A stretch of 44,005 nt of DNA, taken from IMG/VR virus record IMGVR_UViG_2579778573_000005, one strand, 5' to 3'. The stretch is from a virus (taxonomy: Duplodnaviria > Heunggongvirae > Uroviricota > Caudoviricetes). Below are positions 3,903-43,305 of the stretch, piece after piece. Under the pieces are notes generated by a model, which worked only from the letters and a program-made list of their open reading frames with translations, searched no databases and had not been told where the DNA came from. Each line of letters opens with the position of its first letter. Position 1 is the first letter of the stretch. Made by a program: the position numbers and the translations under genes.

Positions 3903-4415
3903 TTAATATACATGGAGAATACGAGCAACGCCCGCAAGAACGTCAACACCATTAATTACTCGTTTCATTTTTGCAGGATGAATCTCGTAAATAATTTTTC
4001 CATTTTGAACTCGTTTATAATAGCTCGGCGCAATCGTTACTGATTGCCCAACTGCTGATTTTGAATCAGTCCCCTGCGCGTCATCAGTAATCGCCGTAAT
4101 AAGCCCCTCATATGTATCAATACGTTCAAAATTGACACCGTAATTGTCAGTATATGCACTTCGAATTTCGAACCTTGTTTTAGCACCTGGTATTAATCCC
4201 AAATACCCCATCACACCAGAATCGGAGCCAGAGACTTTAAAACTGGCTGACATTTTCTCCATTCCCCCGTCCAGAGTGATAGCTGTATCCATAGCGCCCG
4301 TCTTAAAATCATCTTCGATTATTTTCATATCGACGGGAGTGTATTCAGTGCAATTTAAAACTCGTTCTCCCTGGACGAACAACGCAAATGCACGATAGGT
4401 GTTACTATCTGCCAT
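3903..4415 (-). CDS. Tail tube protein (P2 FII-like)
   Basis: Track ORF 170 aa directly after the sheath gene. Confidence 0.6.
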   Translation of the reverse strand: MADSNTYRAFALFVQGERVLNCTEYTPVDMKIIEDDFKTGAMDTAITLDGGMEKMSASFKVSGSDSGVMGYLGLIPGAKTRFEIRSAYTDNYGVNFERIDTYEGLITAITDDAQGTDSKSAVGQSVTIAPSYYKRVQNGKIIYEIHPAKMKRVINGVDVLAGVARILHVY

Positions 4416-5935: not shown

Positions 5936-6321
5936 TTTATTCCTTCTCTATTTTCACCAATTCGCGTCGCTATTGCTTCTTTAAGCTCGGCCAAATTTTC
6001 GATTTGCGCGTCAGATGCGGTTCCGGCATCTACTGCACACTGAATTGAGAATGCCTCAATTGACAGATCGCCAACAGTCCGTAATGTAGTCTGGAGTTTT
6101 TGCGTCTGCTCTTTTTTTACAAATTTAGAAATGCTCCCATAATCCCCGCTCAGCGCTCTTTCATATAAAACCCTACCGTGTTCCTCGCAATCATTTTTCA
6201 TTGCGGTGAATGGAATGTCGTTTCCAATCCCGTCAATATCGCAAATAATATTTATAGATAACCCATGCTCGTCATTAAAAACAGGGTTTGTTATTTTTCT
6301 AAATGAATCAACGCTTATCAT
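5932..6321 (-). CDS. Putative tail fiber assembly protein (positional)
   Basis: Track ORF 129 aa immediately downstream of the tail fiber gene, overlapping stop/start. Confidence 0.35.
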   Translation of the reverse strand: MISVDSFRKITNPVFNDEHGLSINIICDIDGIGNDIPFTAMKNDCEEHGRVLYERALSGDYGSISKFVKKEQTQKLQTTLRTVGDLSIEAFSIQCAVDAGTASDAQIENLAELKEAIATRIGENREGIK

Positions 6322-16650: not shown

Positions 16651-16880
16651 AATCGAACTCCCACGGGCCGACGGCGTCCCGTACTCAGACCGAGCTGTGA
16701 TTTCAGCTCGATAATGTACGTTCGGAGCTGCTCAATACTCGCCTGCGAGTATTGATAGCTCCGGTTATTTCCTGCTGAATCGCCGTGAGACAGCGACACG
16801 GTCGATTTACCCGTTAATAATTTGTGCAGAGCGATTTCCGCTTCCAGCAGTCGTTCTGTTAAAACCTCGCGCGACGTCAT
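16647..16880 (-). CDS. Head-tail joining protein W (lambda gpW-like)
   Basis: Track ORF 77 aa; resembles lambda W. Confidence 0.6.
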   Translation of the reverse strand: MTSREVLTERLLEAEIALHKLLTGKSTVSLSHGDSAGNNRSYQYSQASIEQLRTYIIELKSQLGLSTGRRRPVGVRL

Positions 16881-18841
16881 TAGCTCCCTCCGAGCATTCT
16901 GGCCATCTCCTCGAGAGACAGTTTGTTTTGTGATTTTTTCCGTTGCTCAGCGAGCGTCTCGAGATTGAGCTGGAAACGAATTTTACTGATACGCAGCGCT
17001 GCCAGTCCGTACACCCAGCAGTCGAGCGCCTCATTTCGCCGGCCCTGGTTGTCCCAACGATAAACGACGCGACCGTTAATGAGTTTCGGGATCAGAACCT
17101 CGGAGACGAGCTGTTTTGCCTCTGTCGTGCTGAATATTTCGTCGTCGTTGGGAAAATGAATCGCACCTGGTGTCGCCGATTTGGAGTCGGGTTCCAGCTG
17201 CAGGCGCATTGCGAGCAGGTCTTTCGCTGTATCTGTCCCAATCAACGACAAATACACTTTATTCGCGTTACGGGTACGAGGCATATTTACGACCGGCTGG
17301 CCGTATGAGCTCGCGCCCTTGATTGGAATGACCCACAGCGGACCGAGTTTCAGCGAGCGGTTATAAACGACCTGCGCATCTATACCACCGGTATCCCACG
17401 CCCAGCGACTGACGCCGATTGTGGTCCCGTCGCTGCGCCGGTATTGTTTGCGAATCACTCCGTCGACGCGCTGCAGCGTGTCCTCCTCGTCGTAGCGACC
17501 GAGGACGATTGTTTTATCAATCAGCCAGCACTCCTCCTCGGCTCCCCAGCCCCACACATAACACTCGTAGCGCCCGGACGTCTGAGAGTCGATGCCGCCG
17601 GTTATATAAACAACACCGTCAGGAACCTGGCTGGCGTATTTTTCCCGGCGATTAACCAGAATATCGTGCTCCAGCTGCTCGCTGGCCACGTCGCTCCAGA
17701 GTTCGCCGAGCGTCGTGTTATGAAACGTCTTTTCCTTGAGCGGGTCGCCTTTCGCTTTCAGCCACTCGCTGACAATCTCGCCCCATCCATCGAGGTTTAG
17801 TGAATACAGGGCGTTTATCACGATCGCAGCGTGTTTCGGCGCGCGAACGACGCCACCGTCATGATCAAAAAAATGAATGCCGTCTCGGGTCCAGGTGCAG
17901 TCCTCGGCTATCCAGCGCCCCCCGAACTCCATTTTTTCGAGATCGCGATAGTAAAAATGTTCCGGGCAGTGGCAGCACTGGTAATACGCGGACGACGATT
18001 TCGCCTCATTGGTCTGCAGGCTGTTATCCCATTTGAGGCCGTATTCGATACCGTCGAAACCAAATACCAGGACCTGCTCCTCGCCACAATGCGGACATGT
18101 CAGGTAAAAACGAAACGTCAGATCGGCAGCGTCTTCGAGCATTTCGATATGACTTTTGCCGGTAACGGTCGGCGTCGAACCAAAAATCGCCTTCGGGTAC
18201 GCTGCCCCTTTAATTCGAACGAGCGCCAGTTCGATGGGCGAGCCCTCGCCTTTGCCTTTTTTGGCAACTTCCAGCGGCCAGCCGTCAACTTCGTCACCCT
18301 CGACAACCTGTTTCGTTAGTCGCCGGAAATTTCCTGGTGCACTCGCGCCGCGAAAATCAAGAATCGCGCCGCTCATTTCTTTACGCTGGAGATTGTTACG
18401 CTCGTTGCTTTTATCCCAGTCGGGGAAAATTTTCTGAATCACTGGCATTTCGGCGATAGCGGGGTCAACCTCGTCGGCGACAAATCCATCCGATTCGTCA
18501 TCGATAGGCTGATAGACCACGGCACTACGTTTTTTGTGCTCAGCGAAATAGAGCAGCGCCGCGACGAGTATTTTTGTATAACCGAGACGAGCTGATTTGC
18601 GAACAGACACGATTTTTATCGCGTCGTTCGTCATCATATTGAGCATCACTACCTGGACCGGCTGAGTCGTCCAGTGCCCAGCGATGTGGCTGGAGCCCTC
18701 AGGGAGATAAAAATATTTATCAGCCCACTCAACACCCGTCATCGGTATCGTCACGCGCAAGGGATTCAACCCTGTCGAGATCGCGTTCGATATCGCTGAC
18801 ATCGTAATCGCTGAAGTCGATTCGTATGTCTGACAACTCAT
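16880..18841 (-). CDS. Terminase large subunit (lambda gpA-like)
   Basis: Track ORF 653 aa; VEWAD..YLP, CPHCGEEQ and KGAS.YG.PV..MPR motifs match lambda A. Confidence 0.9.
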   Translation of the reverse strand: MSCQTYESTSAITMSAISNAISTGLNPLRVTIPMTGVEWADKYFYLPEGSSHIAGHWTTQPVQVVMLNMMTNDAIKIVSVRKSARLGYTKILVAALLYFAEHKKRSAVVYQPIDDESDGFVADEVDPAIAEMPVIQKIFPDWDKSNERNNLQRKEMSGAILDFRGASAPGNFRRLTKQVVEGDEVDGWPLEVAKKGKGEGSPIELALVRIKGAAYPKAIFGSTPTVTGKSHIEMLEDAADLTFRFYLTCPHCGEEQVLVFGFDGIEYGLKWDNSLQTNEAKSSSAYYQCCHCPEHFYYRDLEKMEFGGRWIAEDCTWTRDGIHFFDHDGGVVRAPKHAAIVINALYSLNLDGWGEIVSEWLKAKGDPLKEKTFHNTTLGELWSDVASEQLEHDILVNRREKYASQVPDGVVYITGGIDSQTSGRYECYVWGWGAEEECWLIDKTIVLGRYDEEDTLQRVDGVIRKQYRRSDGTTIGVSRWAWDTGGIDAQVVYNRSLKLGPLWVIPIKGASSYGQPVVNMPRTRNANKVYLSLIGTDTAKDLLAMRLQLEPDSKSATPGAIHFPNDDEIFSTTEAKQLVSEVLIPKLINGRVVYRWDNQGRRNEALDCWVYGLAALRISKIRFQLNLETLAEQRKKSQNKLSLEEMARMLGGS

Positions 18842-19295
18842 TTAAGGCTATCGCCAGCTCCTCTCGTAATACACTGCTCGCCTCTTGCGGCATCTCCGGC
18901 CAGACCTTTTTCAGGCGTGGTGGCCACGACTCGACGCGGGTACGTAATTCAACGGCGACGCGAGATACAGCGACGCTAATTAATTCAATTGGCGCGTAGC
19001 GTTTAGCGAGAATGCGGCGTTTTACTCGTGCCATCAGGATTCGCTCCTGTCGTTCCTCATTTTTCAGCCACTGCTCGCGATTTTTTTCGGGAGAATTGTC
19101 CCCCGCTTCCGGTTCGTCATTACTAGTTGTGTCGCGTCTATTGCTCCGGAGATAACGAATATAAAAATGGCGCCATGCGTCTAGCTCCCAATCACCACGT
19201 CCTTGTGGGACTGGTGCTCCCGGAAGTTTTGCGAGATCGCGCAGACGACGATCAGATAGCAGTAAATGTGCTGCAACCTCAGCCTGACTTGCCAT
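18729..19295 (-). CDS. Putative terminase small subunit (positional)
   Basis: Track ORF 188 aa upstream of and overlapping the large terminase. Confidence 0.45.
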   Translation of the reverse strand: MASQAEVAAHLLLSDRRLRDLAKLPGAPVPQGRGDWELDAWRHFYIRYLRSNRRDTTSNDEPEAGDNSPEKNREQWLKNEERQERILMARVKRRILAKRYAPIELISVAVSRVAVELRTRVESWPPRLKKVWPEMPQEASSVLREELAIALNELSDIRIDFSDYDVSDIERDLDRVESLARDDTDDGC

Positions 19296-19440
19296 TAAAA
19301 ATCCTCACCGGAACCGGAAATACCCAAAATGAAAAAATACTAAAAACGAGCGAGTTTTTGCGCGTCTACCGACCCTCGGTGTTTTGGATTTCGGAAAGGA
19401 CCCGCGACCAGGGGGCTATCTCCCTTTCAGGACAGGAATT
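19296..19440 (-). promoter_or_regulatory. Candidate cos region
   Basis: Non-coding stretch upstream of terminase genes; minus strand carries GGTCGCGGGTCCTTTCCG and TTTCCGGTT, which resemble lambda cos-proximal sequence as recalled from memory. Confidence 0.35.
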
Positions 19441-19648
19441 AGGGGCTCGCATCAGGTTCATCAAACTCAACTGTAGCCTCGCGGCGTACTTGTTTGCATA
19501 CATCAGCTTTGTGTATCTGATTATCAGCGTAAGCTTTCACTTTGGCAGCGAGCCATCCTTTTGTGCTGTATCGATAGACTACCGAACAAGTTTTCCATAT
19601 ATGTATATATCTTGAACTTATTGATATCATTACAGAAAAACAACAACC

Positions 19649-19909
19649 ATGAGAACGCAAAAAATGAACAGAGAAAAAATTGAAGCCTTAATGAGCGTAA
19701 TATTAAAAGAAGCTGACCCAAAAAAGTTTCCTGAGAAGTTATCAGAGGACGCCATCGTATCTTTTTATCGTGCGAACTCCTCTTATCTAAATTGTTCAAC
19801 TTTAAGAGAATGGCTAAGCGGCGAAGCAGAGCCTTCAGATGAGATACTTCAGAAGATTATGGTTCAGAACAACTGGCGCGCAACAAAATGGTCAAATCAG
19901 TTACCTTAA
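19649..19909 (+). CDS. Opposite-strand AT-rich small ORF (moron candidate), unknown function
   Basis: Track ORF 86 aa; likely start at internal ATG 19664; lies between terminase and lysis genes. Confidence 0.4.
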   Translation: MRTQKMNREKIEALMSVILKEADPKKFPEKLSEDAIVSFYRANSSYLNCSTLREWLSGEAEPSDEILQKIMVQNNWRATKWSNQLP

Positions 19910-19923
19910 TCTGTTGAATGTGT

Positions 19924-19947
19924 GCCGCCTTAAAACAAAAAGGCGGC
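19924..19947. terminator. Hairpin between convergent genes
   Basis: GCCGCCT / AGGCGGC inverted repeat with 10-nt loop; no strong U-tract. Confidence 0.3.
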
Positions 19948-19968
19948 CTCTCGTTAAAGTAAATTACC

Positions 19969-20163
19969 CTATTTTCCACCAAGGCATGAAGCCTCTGCCC
20001 CGGTTGAATCAATACAACCACCGTTCGCAGTAGTAATCTTCGTACCCGGCGCGATCATCACGTGTTTAATACTGCTGCCGTCAGCGCGAGTCGCTTCGGT
20101 GTATGTCGAATGTGTGCAGCCTGCCAGCGTGAAGAACGCGACAGCTAAGAGAAGTTTTTTCAC
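19969..20163 (-). CDS. Small lipoprotein (possible Rz1-like outer-membrane spanin)
   Basis: Track ORF 64 aa; signal peptide with LAGC lipobox; last gene of lysis cassette; GTG start. Confidence 0.5.
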   Translation of the reverse strand: MKKLLLAVAFFTLAGCTHSTYTEATRADGSSIKHVMIAPGTKITTANGGCIDSTGAEASCLGGK

Positions 20164-20170
20164 GTTTTAC

Positions 20171-20650
20171 CTACGCTTCTGAGATAGATTTCTCAGCATT
20201 CACCAATGGAAGTGATTGTGGAACATCCGTTTGACCTGCTGGCCAGCGGTAGCCTGTTACGCGGGAACGAGGAAAAGCTTTGATATTTACTTCATCTGCC
20301 TGGTTGCCCCCCAAAATCATTAAATCCCCGGCGGCATTTTTCCCGACAACAAAGCCGACGTGACCACCGCCAGACCGAGACAGAATAGCAATGCATCCAT
20401 AGGCGGGTTCCTTCAGTTCATTACCCCAATCGAGATAAGAATTCGCAGACTCAAAACGCGTTGAGCGAATACCCGCACGTTCCAGCATTGCCCCGGTGAA
20501 AGCAGCGCACCACGGTGTTTCGTCATCCTTAATGCCGCCGCGTTTGATATCTTTCCAGTACTGCACAATTTCTGCAGCATGTTGCTTCCCTTTCATTTCC
20601 CGAATGCCGAGGTTTTTTCGAGCCTCGATTAGCCATTTAGGATCCGTCAT
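20171..20650 (-). CDS. Putative endolysin (cell-wall hydrolase)
   Basis: Track ORF 159 aa between holin-like genes and lipoprotein; Cys-containing PWCAAF motif. Confidence 0.45.
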   Translation of the reverse strand: MTDPKWLIEARKNLGIREMKGKQHAAEIVQYWKDIKRGGIKDDETPWCAAFTGAMLERAGIRSTRFESANSYLDWGNELKEPAYGCIAILSRSGGGHVGFVVGKNAAGDLMILGGNQADEVNIKAFPRSRVTGYRWPAGQTDVPQSLPLVNAEKSISEA

Positions 20651-20922
20651 TACCTGTCTCCTGTTATTTTTGAAATATTCCCTCGTGCCCGCCAGACAGC
20701 AATACAGATGGTGAGGTTGAGAAAGAACTCTGCGGGATCAACCTGCGTATATTTCCCGTAAAAAATTCGTAGGGCTATCCACGCAGCAGACAGAATCGCG
20801 AGGTAAGCAGTTAGTGAGATGAAAAAACGATAGCGGCCTGTTTTTTGAAAAAACATCAACCGTAGTGCCAACATCAGACAAATAATTGCATTGGCATTGA
20901 TGAGGACAGAGTGCAGGGTCAT
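20650..20922 (-). CDS. Holin/antiholin-like small membrane protein
   Basis: Track ORF 90 aa; hydrophobic segments; 1-nt overlaps with flanking genes. Confidence 0.45.
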   Translation of the reverse strand: MTLHSVLINANAIICLMLALRLMFFQKTGRYRFFISLTAYLAILSAAWIALRIFYGKYTQVDPAEFFLNLTICIAVWRARGNISKITGDR

Positions 20923-21305
20923 TATTTCATCCCCTTATCTGATTTCCATAAACGAGCTTGTGACATGATCCGCAACAGTGATGTAACGCTGATTACTGAT
21001 GCAACCAGTGCACCAATGGCGGGAGAGACTTTTACTGTTACGGGAGGGTTCAGGTGACTCAGCACCGCGTTCAGAATACCGGTAATGATGGCTGACGCTG
21101 TCTCAGCGCAATACACACCGCCAACAAACGAAATGAGTGCGAAAATAACCTGCTTCCAGAATCGATGCTGCCCGGACGACAACACATAGAGAGCTGCGCC
21201 TGCCAGCGCACAGATCATCACTGCAGGTGTTGCCTCAGGAAATAACGCAGCAAACGTCACCCCCGCCGAGCCAGCAGCAACGCCAGCGGTTAGAGGTTCA
21301 GACAT
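20922..21305 (-). CDS. Holin-like membrane protein
   Basis: Track ORF 20922-21386; likely start at internal ATG 21305 preceded by AGGAAA; three hydrophobic segments. Confidence 0.5.
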   Translation of the reverse strand: MSEPLTAGVAAGSAGVTFAALFPEATPAVMICALAGAALYVLSSGQHRFWKQVIFALISFVGGVYCAETASAIITGILNAVLSHLNPPVTVKVSPAIGALVASVISVTSLLRIMSQARLWKSDKGMK

Positions 21306-21389
21306 GATTTTTCCTGATTCAGAAACGACAAAACCCCGCCGTGGCGAGGTTCTTAGAAATTTGGCAACATACCAAATTAGCGTCAAATA

Positions 21390-23383: not shown

Positions 23384-24025
23384 TTATTTATCACTCCTGT
23401 AAATTGGAATTAACCATTTTCTAATCGTCGACGCTGCAGGTGGGTCAGAGTATTTCGCCACAAAAATACCGGATATGTATTGCACGCCACGCGATAATGG
23501 CGCTGTCGGGTTTTCAGTAAAAAAACGATCAGCCAGTTCAATGGCTTCGCTTTTTAATCTGTGCTGTGGTCGTCCTCCGCCCTTTGTTCCCAGGTATCGC
23601 GCCAGTTGTTTGAAACGGTAGGCGATGATTAACGGTCGCATCATCATATTGAAAAAATCGCGGGCATCGTTGTCAGCGCCTTGCGCTATCAACAGTGCAA
23701 AAAACAGATACGGGATTATGTACACTTCAGGAGATATACGAACCCGTTCACAAGTTGGTGGAGCCAACTCAATAAGTAAGTCAGCCAGCGGATTCCCCTT
23801 TTCTCCACGTTTGTAATAGCGATACAGCGGCCCGATATCAAGTTCACTCACGTCGATTTCAGGATGCCCGGCAACGACTGTACGTATCTCTTCTGCCAGA
23901 GCGTCAAATATTGCCCCGGTCCGTTCAAGATAGAGCCTCCGGGTCGAACCGCGATCATCCAACGCCCGTAACATATCTAACCGGCTAACGAAAGTTTCAG
24001 GCCAGTCCTCATAGAAGGTTTTCAT
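23384..24025 (-). CDS. Hypothetical protein (213 aa)
   Basis: Track ORF 23384-24061 starts at GTG; internal ATG 24025 has a GAGGT RBS. Confidence 0.45.
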   Translation of the reverse strand: MKTFYEDWPETFVSRLDMLRALDDRGSTRRLYLERTGAIFDALAEEIRTVVAGHPEIDVSELDIGPLYRYYKRGEKGNPLADLLIELAPPTCERVRISPEVYIIPYLFFALLIAQGADNDARDFFNMMMRPLIIAYRFKQLARYLGTKGGGRPQHRLKSEAIELADRFFTENPTAPLSRGVQYISGIFVAKYSDPPAASTIRKWLIPIYRSDK

Positions 24026-24047
24026 AATTACCTCGAATAATAAAAAC

Positions 24048-24062
24048 TGCACTATTTGCACA
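24048..24062. promoter_or_regulatory. Palindromic operator-like site 1 (TGCA-C..TGCAC type)
   Basis: TGCACTATTTGCACA in the 5' region of the 213-aa gene. Confidence 0.35.
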
Positions 24063-24268
24063 ATTTATTATTCGTTTTCACGCCGCTGAGTTCTATAAAA
24101 AAGAAAAAACCTCCGAGGCAGGGTTTTGTTATGGCTCGTTAAATCATCATCCAACTTTTTAGACTGAACGGTGATACTTGCAAATATTTGAAAATATGGG
24201 CTGGAACCCTATCTTATGATGTGCCTGGTAATTTATATTGTTGGGTCTTTATATCATGAGGAATCACT

Positions 24269-24502
24269 ATGGGTACGTTAGGCAACCAGCCGTGCAGAAG
24301 TCGTTATGAGTTCGATGATTTTAATTTAGCCAATCGAGCTGCGGCTCTTACTAAGTTAGCAAAAGAAACTGGTGTATCGGTGGATACCTTAATCAAACTT
24401 GAAATTGCTATGCAACTGAATCGGCTCAACTCCATCCTTATCGAAAACGGTGACAAGATGGACGAGAATCTGGCAGGTATTGGCGAGATACTGCAGAAGT
24501 GA
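24269..24502 (+). CDS. Small putative HTH DNA-binding protein
   Basis: Track ORF 77 aa; GAGGAA RBS; helix-turn-helix-like LTKLAKETGVSVDTLIKLE. Confidence 0.35.
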   Translation: MGTLGNQPCRSRYEFDDFNLANRAAALTKLAKETGVSVDTLIKLEIAMQLNRLNSILIENGDKMDENLAGIGEILQK

Positions 24503-24811
24503 GAGTAGCCCCTCTTCTGAGGGGTTGCACATTTAAAATATTAAGGGCGGTCTTCTTCACGTACACAGTCACCTGGTCGAATCGTTCACGCATACTGAGT
24601 ACAAAAAATCTCAACGATAAGATCAGGTTAGACCTGTATTTTCCAGAAACATATAGACGCCTAAAAAAACACTAAACTCATGATTATCATGTATGTTTTT
24701 ACTGGAAACATTGAACCATCCACAATACAGCGTAAAAAGCAAGCAATTCACAAGATTTTAAAGTGATTTATCTGGAAGACTTTACTACTAACAGTTAATA
24801 TCGTACCAGAA

Positions 24812-24826
24812 GTGCAGAATTTGCAC
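24812..24826. promoter_or_regulatory. Palindromic operator-like site 2
   Basis: GTGCAGAATTTGCAC (perfect 5-5-5 inverted repeat) ~75 bp upstream of the peptidase gene. Confidence 0.4.
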
Positions 24827-24900
24827 TTTTACAGGAATGTGGTACGGAACATGCTGTCTATATTTCAACCAATAATCGTAATGCAGTAACTGGAGGAGCT

Positions 24901-25389
24901 ATGGCTACCAACCCAAGAGAGCACGCCCGGCGAGTGCTGGACACGTTCTGGTGCGGGCGTGGTTTCCCTGTTGATCCAGCGAAAATTGCTCACGACATGG
25001 GATTAGATGTTTTTATTACCGATCTTCCTGGGAAAGTTTCTGGCGCACTGATTAAACAAAAAGATCAAGATCCAGCGATCTTTCTAAACAGTGATGACAA
25101 CAAAGTTCGTCAACGTTTTTCATGTGGGCATGAGTTGGGGCATTACATCGCCCGGCAAGCATCGCATAGCGATGAATATGAGTACGTTGATTTACGTGGC
25201 GAAACCGCAAGCGCCGGAACGCATCCTGATGAAATTTTTGCAAACAAGTTCGCAGCAGAACTTCTGATGCCGGTAGATGAGGTCAGAAAACTGCACGCTG
25301 ACGGTCAACCAAGTTATATAATGGCGCATTATTTTGGCGTATCTGACGATGCGATGACTTATCGTTTAAAGAACTTGAGGTTGGGGTAA
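24901..25389 (+). CDS. ImmA/IrrE-family Zn-metallopeptidase (COG2856/DUF955-like)
   Basis: Track ORF 162 aa; HELGH (HEXXH) motif and downstream EIFANKFAAELLMP motif typical of ImmA/IrrE; GGAGGAG RBS. Confidence 0.8.
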   Translation: MATNPREHARRVLDTFWCGRGFPVDPAKIAHDMGLDVFITDLPGKVSGALIKQKDQDPAIFLNSDDNKVRQRFSCGHELGHYIARQASHSDEYEYVDLRGETASAGTHPDEIFANKFAAELLMPVDEVRKLHADGQPSYIMAHYFGVSDDAMTYRLKNLRLG

Positions 25390-25398
25390 CGCTTTAAA

Positions 25399-26004
25399 AT
25401 GCCATCGGATGACGATTTTAACAGCCGTTTCAAACAGGAAGTAGCACGCAGACTGAAGGATTCCCTCAACCTACACCGTCAGTTAGCAGAAGAGGTTGAG
25501 CCGGAGGACGATGAAACTCCGGTTCAGTCTCCTGACGAAGCTTCACCTCAGCCAAAGGTTTCGCACGCCCCCAAAAAAACGGCTGTCCGTATTCGCGGAA
25601 TAGCCAGAAAAAGAGCTGCCGAAGCTCGCAAAATGGCTGTAGCTGCGTCTAGCAAAAGAATTCCAACTGCTACACCCTCTCAACAAGTCACCCGTACTGA
25701 GAGTAAAATCTTGACCGAGTTCACATCTGTGAAACAGGTGAATTCACTTGATACCGAGCATGAGCGCAAACAACTCAACAACAAAGATTTTGAAGCAGAA
25801 ATCGCTCTAAAAAAACGATACGGGAAATGGTTCCTGATTATCCTTGCTTTCCAACTTCTGATAATGAATGGTGTATTTATTGCCGACGGCGCAGGTAAGC
25901 TGGAATTTGAGGATTTAACACTACAGTTGTACATGGGCGGTACTTTGACAGAGGTATTCGGCCTCGTGCTGGTCGTGACAAAATACCTTTTTAAACGCAA
26001 GTAA
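25399..26004 (+). CDS. Membrane-anchored protein, unknown function
   Basis: Track ORF 201 aa; 10 bp after the peptidase gene; charged N-terminal region, two C-terminal hydrophobic helices. Confidence 0.6.
   Translation: MPSDDDFNSRFKQEVARRLKDSLNLHRQLAEEVEPEDDETPVQSPDEASPQPKVSHAPKKTAVRIRGIARKRAAEARKMAVAASSKRIPTATPSQQVTRTESKILTEFTSVKQVNSLDTEHERKQLNNKDFEAEIALKKRYGKWFLIILAFQLLIMNGVFIADGAGKLEFEDLTLQLYMGGTLTEVFGLVLVVTKYLFKRK
25933..26004 (+). repeat. Direct repeat copy A (last 24 codons of the membrane protein gene)
   Basis: 72 bp, ~90% identical to 30609-30680. Confidence 0.8.
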
Positions 26005-26028
26005 CTCTCTCGGTCCAACAGTCTTTCG

Positions 26029-26050
26029 AAGGCCCTGATCAAAGGGCCTT
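26029..26050 (+). terminator. Hairpin after the peptidase/membrane-protein operon
   Basis: AAGGCCCT-GATCAA-AGGGCCTT, 8-bp stem; weak T content downstream. Confidence 0.4.
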
Positions 26051-26249
26051 GATAAATTAGCAGTGCGTTGAAAACAGATAGTTATTCCCATCAGTTCCAA
26101 CGTAATACACATCAAAAAAATCACCATTCTTTTGCTCTAACGTCAACACCTACCCTTAAAAAAATAATTCTCCAAGAATGAGAAAGTTATTGTGTGTATT
26201 AGATAAGATATGAGCTGACACATCTATGGCGTGGAGCCAAATTTAATAT

Positions 26250-26281
26250 GACAGTCCGCTCTGTGCCATAAGCGGACTGTC
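26250..26281. terminator. 10-bp perfect inverted repeat hairpin between convergent genes
   Basis: GACAGTCCGC ... GCGGACTGTC with 12-nt loop. Confidence 0.35.
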
Positions 26282-26466
26282 AATAAACAGATTCACTTGT
26301 AAATCTTGAAGCTATACATATTTACTTTCAATGATAAATAAAAGAACTATCCAAAAATCACTGAGAGCATATTTTAACTAACCCTCCGCTACTATTAACA
26401 TAAATTTCACCCAACCATAATTAAATTGATACATATAGCAACTTACCTTGATACGAATCATCTGGG

Positions 26467-27165
26467 TTATATTTTTCCATATTTTTTTCCGTCAAATCGA
26501 ATCATGCCAGGATCAAGAAAATTAATTAAATCGATTAACGCGTGCTGTATTCTGATTAGCCTTTCTTTATAAATTCCGATATCTCTTGTCATATTTATCA
26601 CTTCATTGTTTAAATCTAAAAAAAATGGCTCATTGATAAAGCAATTTTCCTTTGTGAAACTGCCGTAACCTATGCAATCAAATCCAGTATCTGTTGATAT
26701 CAGCATCTTTTCTGCAATAGCTCTCTGCTCTCCTATGAAAAACATAAAATACTGACCAAAGACGTCTGTTTGGATTAATGAGTTAATATTGTTCTGTAAT
26801 CTAATAAACTCCCTCATTTTTTTATTTTTTTCTAGGCTAAGGTATTGAATGTCTATGCGGGCAGCTTCTGTCCATGCAAAAAACTGGGAAAAAAGAAAAA
26901 CAGTATTGTTGATAACATAATCTTGTTGGCGCTTATTCCCATTATGATAAAACTCTTCAATGAACCCCAATTCTAATATATTATAAATACGGCTTTGTAA
27001 GTCTGAAGCTGAGCGAATTAACGGTTCAATATAGTACTGATGTTTTCTCCTTACATCCAGTGATTCATTGAGCTTGTTTATTCTATTCTGATTATAAGTA
27101 GATATAGCAATAGAGATTATAGCTATTGCACCACTAATAAAGCTTGAAATTAATGCCGTACCCAT
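26467..27165 (-). CDS. AT-rich gene for N-terminally membrane-anchored protein, unknown function (accessory candidate)
   Basis: Track ORF 232 aa; one N-terminal hydrophobic helix; markedly lower GC than flanking phage genes. Confidence 0.55.
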   Translation of the reverse strand: MGTALISSFISGAIAIISIAISTYNQNRINKLNESLDVRRKHQYYIEPLIRSASDLQSRIYNILELGFIEEFYHNGNKRQQDYVINNTVFLFSQFFAWTEAARIDIQYLSLEKNKKMREFIRLQNNINSLIQTDVFGQYFMFFIGEQRAIAEKMLISTDTGFDCIGYGSFTKENCFINEPFFLDLNNEVINMTRDIGIYKERLIRIQHALIDLINFLDPGMIRFDGKKYGKI

Positions 27166-28305
27166 CTAAAAGTCCTTTGATTCTTGCTTGGTTAACAAAA
27201 TGACATAATTTTATTTAATGCCATAACAACTTAACAATATATCATAATATGATTATTATGGTGTAGCTTGTCGCATCTACGCTCCATTACAAACAGATGT
27301 AAGATATAACCTATATGTTTTAGCCAGCAAATTCGAAAGCATTCAAAGTAGTCTCATCGAACTCTCGAAACCCTATGTCTTCGGGTATAAAATATTTAAA
27401 TCCATTTGCATAATATCGACTCATGTTTATTATATTCTCCCCATTCACCATTAAGATTTGACATTATTTTCAACAATCGGTTATTGCAAGATTGAAATAT
27501 ATTTTTACTTGACACAATATTCCATGTAGCCCAGCGATTCGACTTACCCCCAACTATACGGACAATCTAAATTAAATCGATGATTTTTTGATACATTCTC
27601 CTCTCTCCATTACTTTATGTTTTTGTTCCCCAAAAATACCTTGCTCTCTAAAAAATAATTGTTCTTTAAGTTCAAAATCGAGATCTACATGAGCGTTAGA
27701 TACAAAGCTAATATGTTGAAATGTCTTTCCCCCCCCCATAACGGCATTGTTATCTAAACTATGTTACACAAATATAATATTACCCTTTCAACGTAATCCA
27801 AGAATAAGATTAATGCCATTATATATATCATAAATATGATATTTTGTATATTTTTATCATTTAGCCTTGATTGTACTAGGTGTACTCTCAACGAAGTAGG
27901 GAAAGTCTGTTCCTCGCTCACAGCTGCCCTTCAGTAAGCGAAAAAATGCCTACTCGGTGCCATATACAGCCATTGTTATTAACAGCAGGGAATAATTCAA
28001 AACTGAAATTAAATATCTACCTTTTACAGTAGAAATAGTTCCTCCAGGACACTATCCATTGCCGGGCACAATCACTCGGGGTATAACGATATAAAATATG
28101 TTCATGATAGTGCAGGTTCGTATATTAAGTTCAGCAGCGAAAACATGCCTTACAGGTTTCCGGTTTTGGGAGCGTCGTTACAGGATCCTGCGCATACCGT
28201 TCCCATCTGTTGAATTAAAGGTTTCACAGCCTTTGCCGATATCACCTTTTACCTTACCTGTGATGCGTTCAGTGCTGAAGTGGTCAACAAAAACTGGCCA
28301 CCGAG

Positions 28306-30704: not shown

Positions 30705-31541
30705 TCAAAATGCTGAATTAGCAACGGATATAGCCGACTTTTTCCCCATTACCATCAATTTATCCAGTGTCATACTTCGCAGATTGTCGCTGTGGATCAC
30801 CAGATACCCTGCCCGCTCAGCGATCTCTTTGAAAGCGTCAAAGGTCATCAGATGTTCGCCTTTGGCAACATGGCGCATCCCGGTCACTTTTCCATTTTTG
30901 ATAGTGGTGATAAAAGAAAAATCTGGAATGGTTGGGTGATTTTCATCGAGTAGCAGGCAGTGGATGTATTCAATCGCCTCTAACATTTGCGTCTGTGACA
31001 GTTGTTCTATGTGAGAGACGGCGAAGCGTTGATGAATCATGGTGTAGGCATCGGGATACATCATGCCTTTCTTGCCGACCAGTATATTAACGGCATCACG
31101 CAAGGGAGTACGGTCATCGGTAGTTGTACTCCGCCTCTCTGGACGCTGGCTAAAATAACAATCTTCCAGCTTTTCGAAAACTTCCCAGGCCTGTTCTGTT
31201 TCCAGCATTTTGGCATGGCGAGCTGCGCCGCGTTCTGTCCAGAGAATGAGGGATCGGGTATGTTTAGCAACTGACTGACTATCTGTCAGTCTGTTTTTGA
31301 AGTCGCGTAATTCATTACCTTCCAGCTTAAAAAAATGCTTTCCTACGACAAATCTGGCGATGTTGCGCTTGAAGTTTTGCTGGATACCATTTACTTCCGT
31401 GCCATACAAACTGGCAAGCAATTCAGTAGTGATGACGGGAAGTTGGTTATGATGTAGCGGAGAAAGGGATTCCGCAGATATTTGGACTGTCATCGCAGTG
31501 GCCTCACTTAGTGTTTTTTTCATCACCACCAGCGACGCCAA
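30705..31541 (-). CDS. Phage antirepressor-like protein (ORF6N-type N-terminal domain)
   Basis: Track ORF 278 aa; start uncertain (internal ATGs at ~31523 and ~31493). Confidence 0.45.
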   Translation of the reverse strand: MASLVVMKKTLSEATAMTVQISAESLSPLHHNQLPVITTELLASLYGTEVNGIQQNFKRNIARFVVGKHFFKLEGNELRDFKNRLTDSQSVAKHTRSLILWTERGAARHAKMLETEQAWEVFEKLEDCYFSQRPERRSTTTDDRTPLRDAVNILVGKKGMMYPDAYTMIHQRFAVSHIEQLSQTQMLEAIEYIHCLLLDENHPTIPDFSFITTIKNGKVTGMRHVAKGEHLMTFDAFKEIAERAGYLVIHSDNLRSMTLDKLMVMGKKSAISVANSAF

Positions 31542-31765
31542 TCATCTGGTGGTGAGCTGTGCAGGGTTGGCGTAACCGGCTAAGTGAACCCGGCGCTTCC
31601 ACAGAAGCCCCCACACAGCCCACCATAATGCGAATGTGGCCGTGCCTAACACATAAAAAAACCGCTAACGCGGCTATGCGTCACTTAGATATCCGGGACG
31701 CCAATCCCGGCAACCGATTTTGCGGCTGCGCGGAAACTATAGCCCCGGACTTTTTCTAAGTCAAT

Positions 31766-43003: not shown

Positions 43004-43090
43004 TGGTACCCGGAGCGGGACTTGAACCCGCACAGCGCGAACGCCGAGGGATTTTAAATCCCTTGTGTCTACCGATTCCACCATCCGGGC
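43004..43090 (-). tRNA. leuZ: tRNA-Leu (anticodon UAA)
   Basis: 87-nt reverse complement reads GCCCGGATGGTGGAATCGGTAGACACAAGGGATTTAAAATCCC...CCA with long variable arm. Confidence 0.9.
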
Positions 43091-43102
43091 TCGGGAAAAA
43101 AG

Positions 43103-43176
43103 TGGAGGCGCGTTCCGGAGTCGAACCGGACTAGACGGATTTGCAATCCGCTACATAACCGCTTTGTTAACGCGCC
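43103..43176 (-). tRNA. cysT: tRNA-Cys (anticodon GCA)
   Basis: 74-nt reverse complement reads GGCGCGTTAACAAAGCGG...GATTGCAAATC...TCCA. Confidence 0.9.
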
Positions 43177-43229
43177 AAATTCTTCAGGCCTTTCAGCCAG
43201 ACATCCGCTGACGCCGATGCCTTTTAAAC

Positions 43230-43305
<76 letters not shown>

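Follow-up and report, generated by a model that had tools for sequence, protein, structure and literature searches.

A conserved small gene in the bor position of a lambda-headed, P2-tailed Escherichia coli prophage, with a predicted XRE-like product

The stretch of DNA considered here (the window; 44,005 nucleotides, IMG/VR record IMGVR_UViG_2579778573_000005, Caudoviricetes) carries an Escherichia coli prophage of about 42.5 kb that joins lambda-like head, regulatory and lysis genes to a P2-like contractile tail. Between its terminase genes and its lysis cassette lies a small plus-strand gene for a protein of 81 amino acids (aa), and this locus is best read as an independent single-gene moron lying antisense in the late operon. 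A sequence-only reading of the window, made without database searches, had pointed to a plus-strand open reading frame (ORF) of about 80 codons flanked by minus-strand operons, in the position that the bor moron occupies in lambda. That description stands: the gene runs from 19664 to 19909 (81 codons), with terminase genes to its left and the lysis cassette to its right, both on the minus strand. It is an ordinary moron in the bor slot, is not homologous to bor, and gives no sign of a new category of system. Its most useful feature is that one small protein family occupies the same antisense slot across unrelated packaging modules, a clean and testable pattern. The gene and its surroundings are delimited as follows.

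19664 to 19909, plus strand: protein-coding gene, 81 aa and a stop codon (from homologue starts, indels and conservation)
19649 to 19663, plus strand: five-codon in-frame extension from an upstream ATG, included in some annotations (assessed from homologue starts and indels)
19560 to 19909, no strand assigned: local AT-rich block of GC 0.363, spanning the promoter region and the gene (from composition)

The ORF listing of the window gives a plus-strand ORF of 86 aa (19649..19909) with minus-strand genes on both sides, and the RefSeq entry for the gene (WP_001260273.1, "hypothetical protein") is annotated from the same upstream ATG. Met6 of this 86-aa ORF is the start in every distant homologue of a ten-sequence alignment, and among the E. 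coli variants insertions or deletions (indels) of +1 or +2 nucleotides (nt) between the ATGs at 19649 and 19664 (L011, L003) put the upstream ATG out of frame. Because the distant homologues start at Met6 and these indels break the frame, we place the gene at 19664..19909; codons 19649..19663 are probably untranslated. A minus-strand ORF of 73 aa that overlaps the upstream region (19439..19660) has no PHROG match and was taken as spurious.

On the evidence of its homologues, the 81-codon ORF is a genuine protein gene under purifying selection. From end to end the product aligns with PHROG 5191 ("unknown function"), residues 1-86 falling on positions 1-86 of the 86-position profile (E 9.5e-62, 206 bits). 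A word-indexed search of 5.8 billion sequences placed the family in 13 clusters at E <= 0.001, and an exhaustive HMMER scan of 1.84 billion representatives returned nine proteins at E <= 0.001, six of them family members, and yielded four full-length homologues of 81-85 aa at 36-53% identity. Overall, full-length homologues are 35-56% identical to the 81-aa protein with the reading frame undisrupted, and the ten-sequence alignment, in which 16 positions are invariant, shows the motif L..WL.G..E(P/I)(S/P)D..L......R...WS. Ratios of nonsynonymous to synonymous substitution (dN/dS, by the Nei-Gojobori method) are 0.05 for L020 vs L021, 0.12 for L018 vs L022 and 0.16-0.27 for three E. coli pairs; a fourth E. 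coli pair gives 0.75 and has two synonymous differences only. The low dN/dS values, together with the full-length homologues, argue for purifying selection on a genuine gene. Lack of conservation, which the sequence-only reading had named as something that would count against it, is the opposite of what we found. The family is thus already catalogued as PHROG 5191, which carries no functional annotation; what is added here to that entry is the set of distant homologues at 35-56% identity, the positional conservation and the fold assignment.

Three observations could instead suit a spurious or decaying ORF, or a locus whose functional element is RNA or DNA instead of protein: a Shine-Dalgarno sequence is missing from the window copy, the gene is truncated or deleted in some strains (P0005, P0006/L004), and the E. 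coli copies are near-clonal, 417 of 443 being at least 99% identical. Against this stand the full-length conservation with an intact frame, the dN/dS values of 0.05-0.27, a confident AlphaFold2 (AF2) fold and an Rfam scan of 19200-20200 that found no match at E <= 1, and so no known small RNA or riboswitch. The conservation data largely refute this alternative, to which we attach almost no weight.

To describe the position of the family gene we compared the window with six homologue or contig sets (Citrobacter freundii L018/L019, L020, L021, L022/L023, L024/L025 and L026/L027). In all seven independent contexts it occupies one slot, after the lysis cassette and antisense to its neighbours, and wherever the first packaging gene is present the family gene lies directly before it and divergent from it, 55-370 bp away. 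The packaging genes are of three unrelated types, namely a Nu1/A-type cos terminase in the window, Terminase_2 with Terminase_6N (P22-like), and HNH with Terminase_4 and TerL_ATPase (HK97-like), and the lysis cassettes also differ among contexts. Such positional conservation across unrelated packaging modules is somewhat unexpected. One of the contexts is a decayed prophage from a metagenome (L024, 3300-6100) with disrupted holin genes, no packaging genes left and host sulfate-transporter genes next to it; its 82-aa family gene is intact, a hint of benefit in the lysogenic state. We found no relative with a completely empty slot.

The constant adjacency to, and divergence from, the first packaging gene at 55-370 bp would also be expected of a packaging or late-operon accessory, a small DNA-binding protein whose target would be the packaging site or the transcription that runs into the terminase genes, and the P22 ant moron has been proposed to affect read-through of late transcription (PMC2629481). 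However, the packaging systems next to the gene share no homology (three terminase types; cos and pac), which makes a common packaging target unlikely; the gene is on the wrong strand for co-expression with the late genes; and it is kept where packaging genes have been lost. In addition, a tblastn search with three family members found the family in one of 50,697 phage records (vB_EcoM-705R4, 100% identity), which argues against a general packaging component. We consider a packaging role very improbable.

A moron, in the sense of Hendrix and Juhala, is an extra gene that appears in an operon when related phages are compared, with its own promoter and terminator, a deviant base composition and expression from the repressed prophage (PMC2629481). 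The composition of the gene is unlike that of its neighbours, with a GC fraction of 0.386 in the gene and 0.353 in the 150 nt upstream, against 0.551 and 0.472 in flanks of about 5 kb. In a whole-window comparison, 19560-19909 has a z of -2.0 and falls in the lowest 4.3% of 350-nt windows, so that the AT dip at the gene is real and locally sharp but moderate on the scale of the window, the prophage having other AT-rich patches. The sequence-only reading had drawn its AT-rich interval from 19440. It was right about the gene and its immediate upstream region; the first 120 nt or so (19440-19560) have a GC of about 0.48 and are not AT-rich. In each homologous locus, too, the family gene is more AT-rich than its own flanks.

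Slot content varies among close E. coli relatives (L003, L004, L009, L011 and L012). In L004 an internal deletion (4160-4310, corresponding to window ~19463-19775) has cost the gene its promoter and 5' half, giving a fusion ORF (P0006); further along the slot L004 also has a different plus-strand gene, of 156 aa and without a match. A viral contig (L011, ~6250-6300, corresponding to window 19913-20009) lacks a hairpin that follows the gene, together with the 3' end of the neighbouring lipoprotein gene, owing to a deletion whose endpoints are two GTTGAAT direct repeats. Past the hairpin the sequence of L003, L004, L009 and L012 is unlike that of the window. There, E. coli RM9387 and LCP30S3_I5 (L003 4620-5510, L004 4340-5400) carry a fossil 5' end of a Terminase_2-type terminase small subunit gene (terS) and then divergent plus-strand cargo, which in L003 includes a 97-aa gene with a weak match to the restriction-alleviation protein Lar (E 1.4e-5, below the Pfam cut-off). 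This tandem unit of a terS start and a divergent moron suggests that recombination among phages that differ in packaging type enlarges the slot. The plasticity of the slot and the conservation of its position fit a textbook moron at a module boundary, and the moron reading is supported by opposite orientation, distinct composition, variable slot content and recurrence of the same slot amid unrelated modules.

The closest parallel is lambda bor, a moron between Rz and cos on the opposite strand that is expressed in lysogens. Like bor, the 81-aa gene is a single small gene of deviant composition; on the lambda map bor lies, as this gene does here, opposite in strand to the late operon, with the lysis cassette on one side and cos/Nu1 on the other. 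Around the 81-aa gene the transcription signals are candidates only. The products differ. Lambda Bor is an outer-membrane lipoprotein, whereas the 81-aa protein has no signal peptide or lipobox and is a predicted soluble, helical, helix-turn-helix (HTH)-like domain. Homology to Bor was rejected, there being no Lambda_Bor Pfam match at E <= 0.1 or E <= 1, a PHROG match to a different family and no lipobox.

Because the gene lies on the strand opposite to both neighbours, it needs its own promoter if it is expressed at all. The candidate signals around it are these.

19622 to 19630, plus strand: candidate extended -10 element TGaTATCAT with a predicted transcription start near 19637 (consensus match only, from a lax scan in the style of a position weight matrix)
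19585 to 19622, no strand assigned: imperfect inverted repeat with 18-nt arms, 72% complementary, overlapping the candidate promoter; a weak operator candidate (from a repeat search)
19924 to 19947, no strand assigned: perfect 8-bp GC-rich hairpin with an 8-nt loop, GCCGCCTT-8 nt-AAGGCGGC (from a repeat search and folding)

A start near 19637 would give a leader of about 27 nt. The TGnTAT...T core of the candidate element is kept in all five E. coli variants, with a hexamer that differs among them (TATCAT, TATTCT, TATCCT); the symmetry of the inverted repeat is partly lost in L003 and L011. A sigma-70-like site on the minus strand, from 19548 to 19520, was set aside as being at chance level (one found vs 1.3 expected).

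The downstream hairpin, already noted in the sequence-only reading, sits where the 81-aa gene and the lipoprotein gene converge, between their stop codons, and folds more stably than shuffled sequences on either strand (z of -3.1 on the plus strand and -3.7 on the minus strand). Its stem is kept in four of the five E. coli variants, with one G-to-A mismatch in L012; the loop is altered in L009 and L012, and L011 has lost the whole hairpin. Hairpins also lie 3' of the gene in the homologous loci, where, read by eye, they resemble canonical minus-strand terminators, which makes the role of the hairpin for the 81-aa gene uncertain. It may act as a bidirectional transcription stop or as a stabiliser of RNA 3' ends.

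The product is predicted to be a soluble cytoplasmic protein of 81 aa that forms a four-helix, divergent XRE/lambda-repressor-like HTH domain. No signal peptide or hydrophobic segment is visible in its sequence, and the N-terminus, MNREKIEALMSVILKEADPKK, is charged. Structure prediction, which the sequence-only reading had proposed as a check alongside a homology search, gave a confident AF2 model when supplied with the ten-sequence alignment (pLDDT 86.9, pTM 0.77) and a poor one from the single sequence (pLDDT 64). The model has helices at residues 2-14, 28-37, 44-52 and 59-68 followed by a short C-terminal tail, in the lambda-repressor-like helical arrangement of XRE/HTH_3 proteins, and its top Foldseek matches in PDB and in BFVD are XRE-like domains. 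A sub-threshold match to Pfam HTH_3 (PF01381) covers residues 45-65, which are exactly helix 3, the loop and helix 4, in what we take to be the same register as the 'SQWERSETEP' motif of P22 C2. There is also a weak, sub-threshold match to a PHROG "transcriptional repressor" family (E 0.039), and no match in NCBIfam. We hold the XRE-like fold with moderate confidence. Because the HTH_3 match is sub-threshold and the protein has a long linker, acidic residues and a low isoelectric point (pI), we do not file it in HTH_3.

From these elements we propose, as a tentative reading that falls a little short of an even bet, an independently transcribed moron that is on while the late operon is silent and that encodes a small Cro/C-protein-like DNA regulator of XRE fold. 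As long as the late operon is silent, in the lysogen and perhaps also just after DNA entry, host sigma-70 polymerase would start at the gene's own AT-rich extended -10 promoter, and the transcript would end, or be stabilised, at the hairpin at 19924-19947. The product, probably a dimer, would bind DNA as a Cro/C-protein-like regulator, both at its own promoter and at others of phage or host. In lytic growth, Q-antiterminated late transcription running antisense through the gene would shut it off. Of this chain the data establish a selected, genuine gene with its position, orientation, composition, hairpin and resemblance in fold; the use of the promoter, the timing of expression, DNA binding and the targets are proposals.

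A number of results weigh against this chain, beginning with its transcription signals. A strict sigma-70 scan calls no plus-strand promoter for the gene, the candidate element at 19622..19630 has no good -35 element, the window copy lacks a Shine-Dalgarno sequence (some homologues have GGAG), and no operator-like repeat conserved across subfamilies was found. No T-run follows the hairpin on either strand (the downstream sequence is CTCTCGTTAAAG on the plus strand and ACACATTCAAC on the minus strand) and a terminator scan did not call it; lacking a U-tract, it is not a canonical intrinsic (Rho-independent) terminator. As for the protein, the Foldseek E-values are all at least 0.18, and the HTH_3 match (E 0.014, 15.8-15.9 bits against a gathering threshold of 23) appears in only three of the ten family members, the near-identical E. 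coli ones. An hhalign comparison with P22 C2 gave P = 0.03, and sequence searches of PDB with the single sequence and with a profile returned noise only (E >= 0.24). In the model a six-residue linker separates the end of helix 2 (residue 37) from the start of helix 3 (residue 44), in place of the tight HTH turn of 3-4 residues, and the homologue P0010 has four extra residues there. Most family members have a pI of 4.9-6.8, and acidic residues lie at the start of helix 2 and after helix 3.

The same features set the family apart from established XRE/Cro-C1 HTH domains such as the N-terminal domain of P22 C2, the DNA-binding domain of BldD, C.AhdI and Aca. Relative to these, the 81-aa protein is below every sequence threshold, the linker between helices 2 and 3 spans 6-10 residues in the family and is not a tight turn, a conserved R..WS tail replaces helix 5, and the charge is neutral to acidic. 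XRE/Cro-C1 regulators usually bind an inverted repeat in their own promoter, whereas here there is only the weak repeat at 19585-19622, which is not conserved across subfamilies.

An XRE-like fold might serve protein contacts and not DNA binding. The protein could then be a modulator or anti-repressor of the TP901-1 MOR kind, a partner resembling an antitoxin or SinI, or, in anti-defence or superinfection exclusion, an inhibitor of some protein of the host or of a competing phage. The long, indel-tolerant linker, the neutral to acidic pI, the acidic would-be DNA face (E28/D29, E54 and the invariant E56), the sub-threshold HTH signal and the lack of a detectable conserved operator would all suit such a protein. 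However, P22 C2, which in our alignment also has an acidic loop after helix 3, binds DNA; no conserved same-strand partner gene occurs in any context; and PADLOC gave no match. TP901-1 MOR is encoded at the genetic switch next to CI, whereas the 81-aa gene is far from the immunity region, has no adjacent partner and shows no detected sequence similarity to MOR. We rate a purely protein-binding role as unlikely, though it deserves to be kept in view. A known defence system was discarded as a candidate for want of a PADLOC match, and a toxin-antitoxin or other two-gene operon was ruled out, no same-strand neighbour being conserved in any context.

The remaining alternatives depend on where the ends of the virion DNA lie, and hence on the elements flanking the gene.

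19360 to 19415, no strand assigned: inferred cos region between terS and the 81-aa gene (from alignment to the ends of Aeromonas phage records)
18729 to 19295, minus strand: Nu1-like terminase small subunit, which bounds the slot on the left (phrog_57, E 3.2e-39, residues 1-185)
16880 to 18841, minus strand: terminase large subunit (from the gene listing and profile matches)
19969 to 20163, minus strand: gene for a 64-aa lipoprotein with a signal peptide and an LAGC lipobox; it closes the lysis cassette and bounds the slot on the right (from the ORF and its sequence)
20171 to 20650, minus strand: TIGR02594/CHAP endolysin (from a profile match)

Between terS and the 81-aa gene, 220 bp align with the very ends of the records of several Aeromonas lambdoid phages, and the records of PhAER-5 and phiARM81ld begin at the base aligned to about window 19374. 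Alignment, with the Nu1-like terS just to the left, would thus place cos at about 19360-19415, in which case the 81-aa gene would be the last at the right end of the virion DNA, about 290 bp from that end and reading inward. The region upstream of terS is about 77% identical to the exact record ends of Aeromonas phages PhAER-1, -2, -5 and phiARM81ld, which suggests a lambda-like cos site common to Escherichia and Aeromonas phages.

In phages of the lambda cos type, packaging begins at the Nu1 end and DNA exit at the right end. A gene so placed could be a leading-end early gene, the first to enter on injection. Its own promoter might let it be expressed ahead of circularisation and so protect the entering genome or help it become established, any role in the lysogen being secondary. 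The inferred cos, about 290 bp away, and the inward orientation agree with this, as do the HK97-like contexts L020 and L021, where the gene again lies close to the right end, immediately ahead of HNH and cos, and the weak Lar match of the same-slot neighbour in L003. Against it, homologues hold the same slot in Terminase_2 (P22-like, headful) phages, whose virion ends are permuted; the gene is kept in a degraded prophage no longer able to inject; the protein is not strongly acidic and hence is not a DNA mimic; and the cos position itself comes from alignment. We think this account improbable. A more speculative proposal is that of a position-locked 'boundary gene', an XRE-like protein kept antisense at the lysis/packaging junction, whichever of the three unrelated packaging machineries is present, for a special expression window (on in the lysogen and as first-entering DNA, off by Q-driven collision). 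Through anti-defence or by excluding competing phages, such a protein would guard the genome in a way new for HTH-fold proteins; we see this as a long shot.

The locus is common in E. coli and narrowly distributed elsewhere. A 673-bp interval containing it is present in 443 of 5426 complete E. coli genomes, nearly always with the same terS and endolysin. Many carrier strains are labelled ST131 or O25:H4, so that, judging by strain names only, the prevalence is largely clonal. The family is confined to Enterobacterales prophages, and a plasmid search found no member. In the literature on the gene, the phage and the ST131/leuZ prophage we found no mention of the 81-aa gene; a paper on a Gifsy defence gene was set aside, as that gene encodes an ATPase unrelated to the 81-aa protein. 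The carrier prophage is thus found in about 8% of complete E. coli genomes, mostly as near-identical copies, and if the product is a lysogen-expressed regulator it could influence the biology of a globally important clone. The locus also offers a convenient case for asking why the lysis/packaging junction gathers cargo genes and what small HTH-like cargo proteins do. In one E. coli genome (NZ_CP196261.1, 2735593-2738960), IS150 is inserted within the interval from terS to the endolysin gene.

Several further features of the prophage were seen in passing. The RefSeq/PGAP model of terS comprises the C-terminal 101 codons only, labelled 'hypothetical protein' in SK1144, whereas other strains have it as a short 'terminase small subunit'; because the full 188-aa ORF matches the terS PHROG over residues 1-185, that model appears to be N-terminally truncated. 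Beyond the endolysin, on the minus strand, lie two holins and antiterminator Q. The lysis cassette (19969-21386, minus strand) comprises the two holins, the TIGR02594/CHAP-type endolysin and the 64-aa lipoprotein, with no recognisable Rz/Rz1 spanin pair. The lipoprotein, which has weak lipoprotein-like or spanin-like profile matches only, may be an unusual outer-membrane lysis component. A Citrobacter prophage (L018, 9107-9301) has a 'Sequestin' (PF21825) gene after its lysis cassette whose product is likewise 64 aa long; the window lipoprotein has no match to PF21825.

The prophage is integrated beside the tRNA-Leu gene of the glyW-cysT-leuZ cluster, between pgsA and yecA, and three tRNA genes (Gly, Cys and Leu in the RefSeq record) adjoin its integrase at window 43007-43305 on the minus strand and at the right end. 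A minus-strand cluster of Rfam matches at 31545-31742, comprising isrK (80 bits), C4 antisense RNA (75 bits) and the c4 a1b1 target (53 bits), lies directly upstream of a gene with an ORF6N domain (antirepressor-like; 30705..31541, minus strand), and together they look like an immI (c4-ant) module of the P1/P7 type in a lambdoid, P2-tailed prophage. The most AT-rich stretch of the window, at 23900-28200 between the Q-side and replication genes, has a GC down to 0.286. Among its genes, which lie on both strands, are one for an ImmA/IrrE metallopeptidase and several hypothetical ones, and the stretch is probably another island of accessory or defence cargo.

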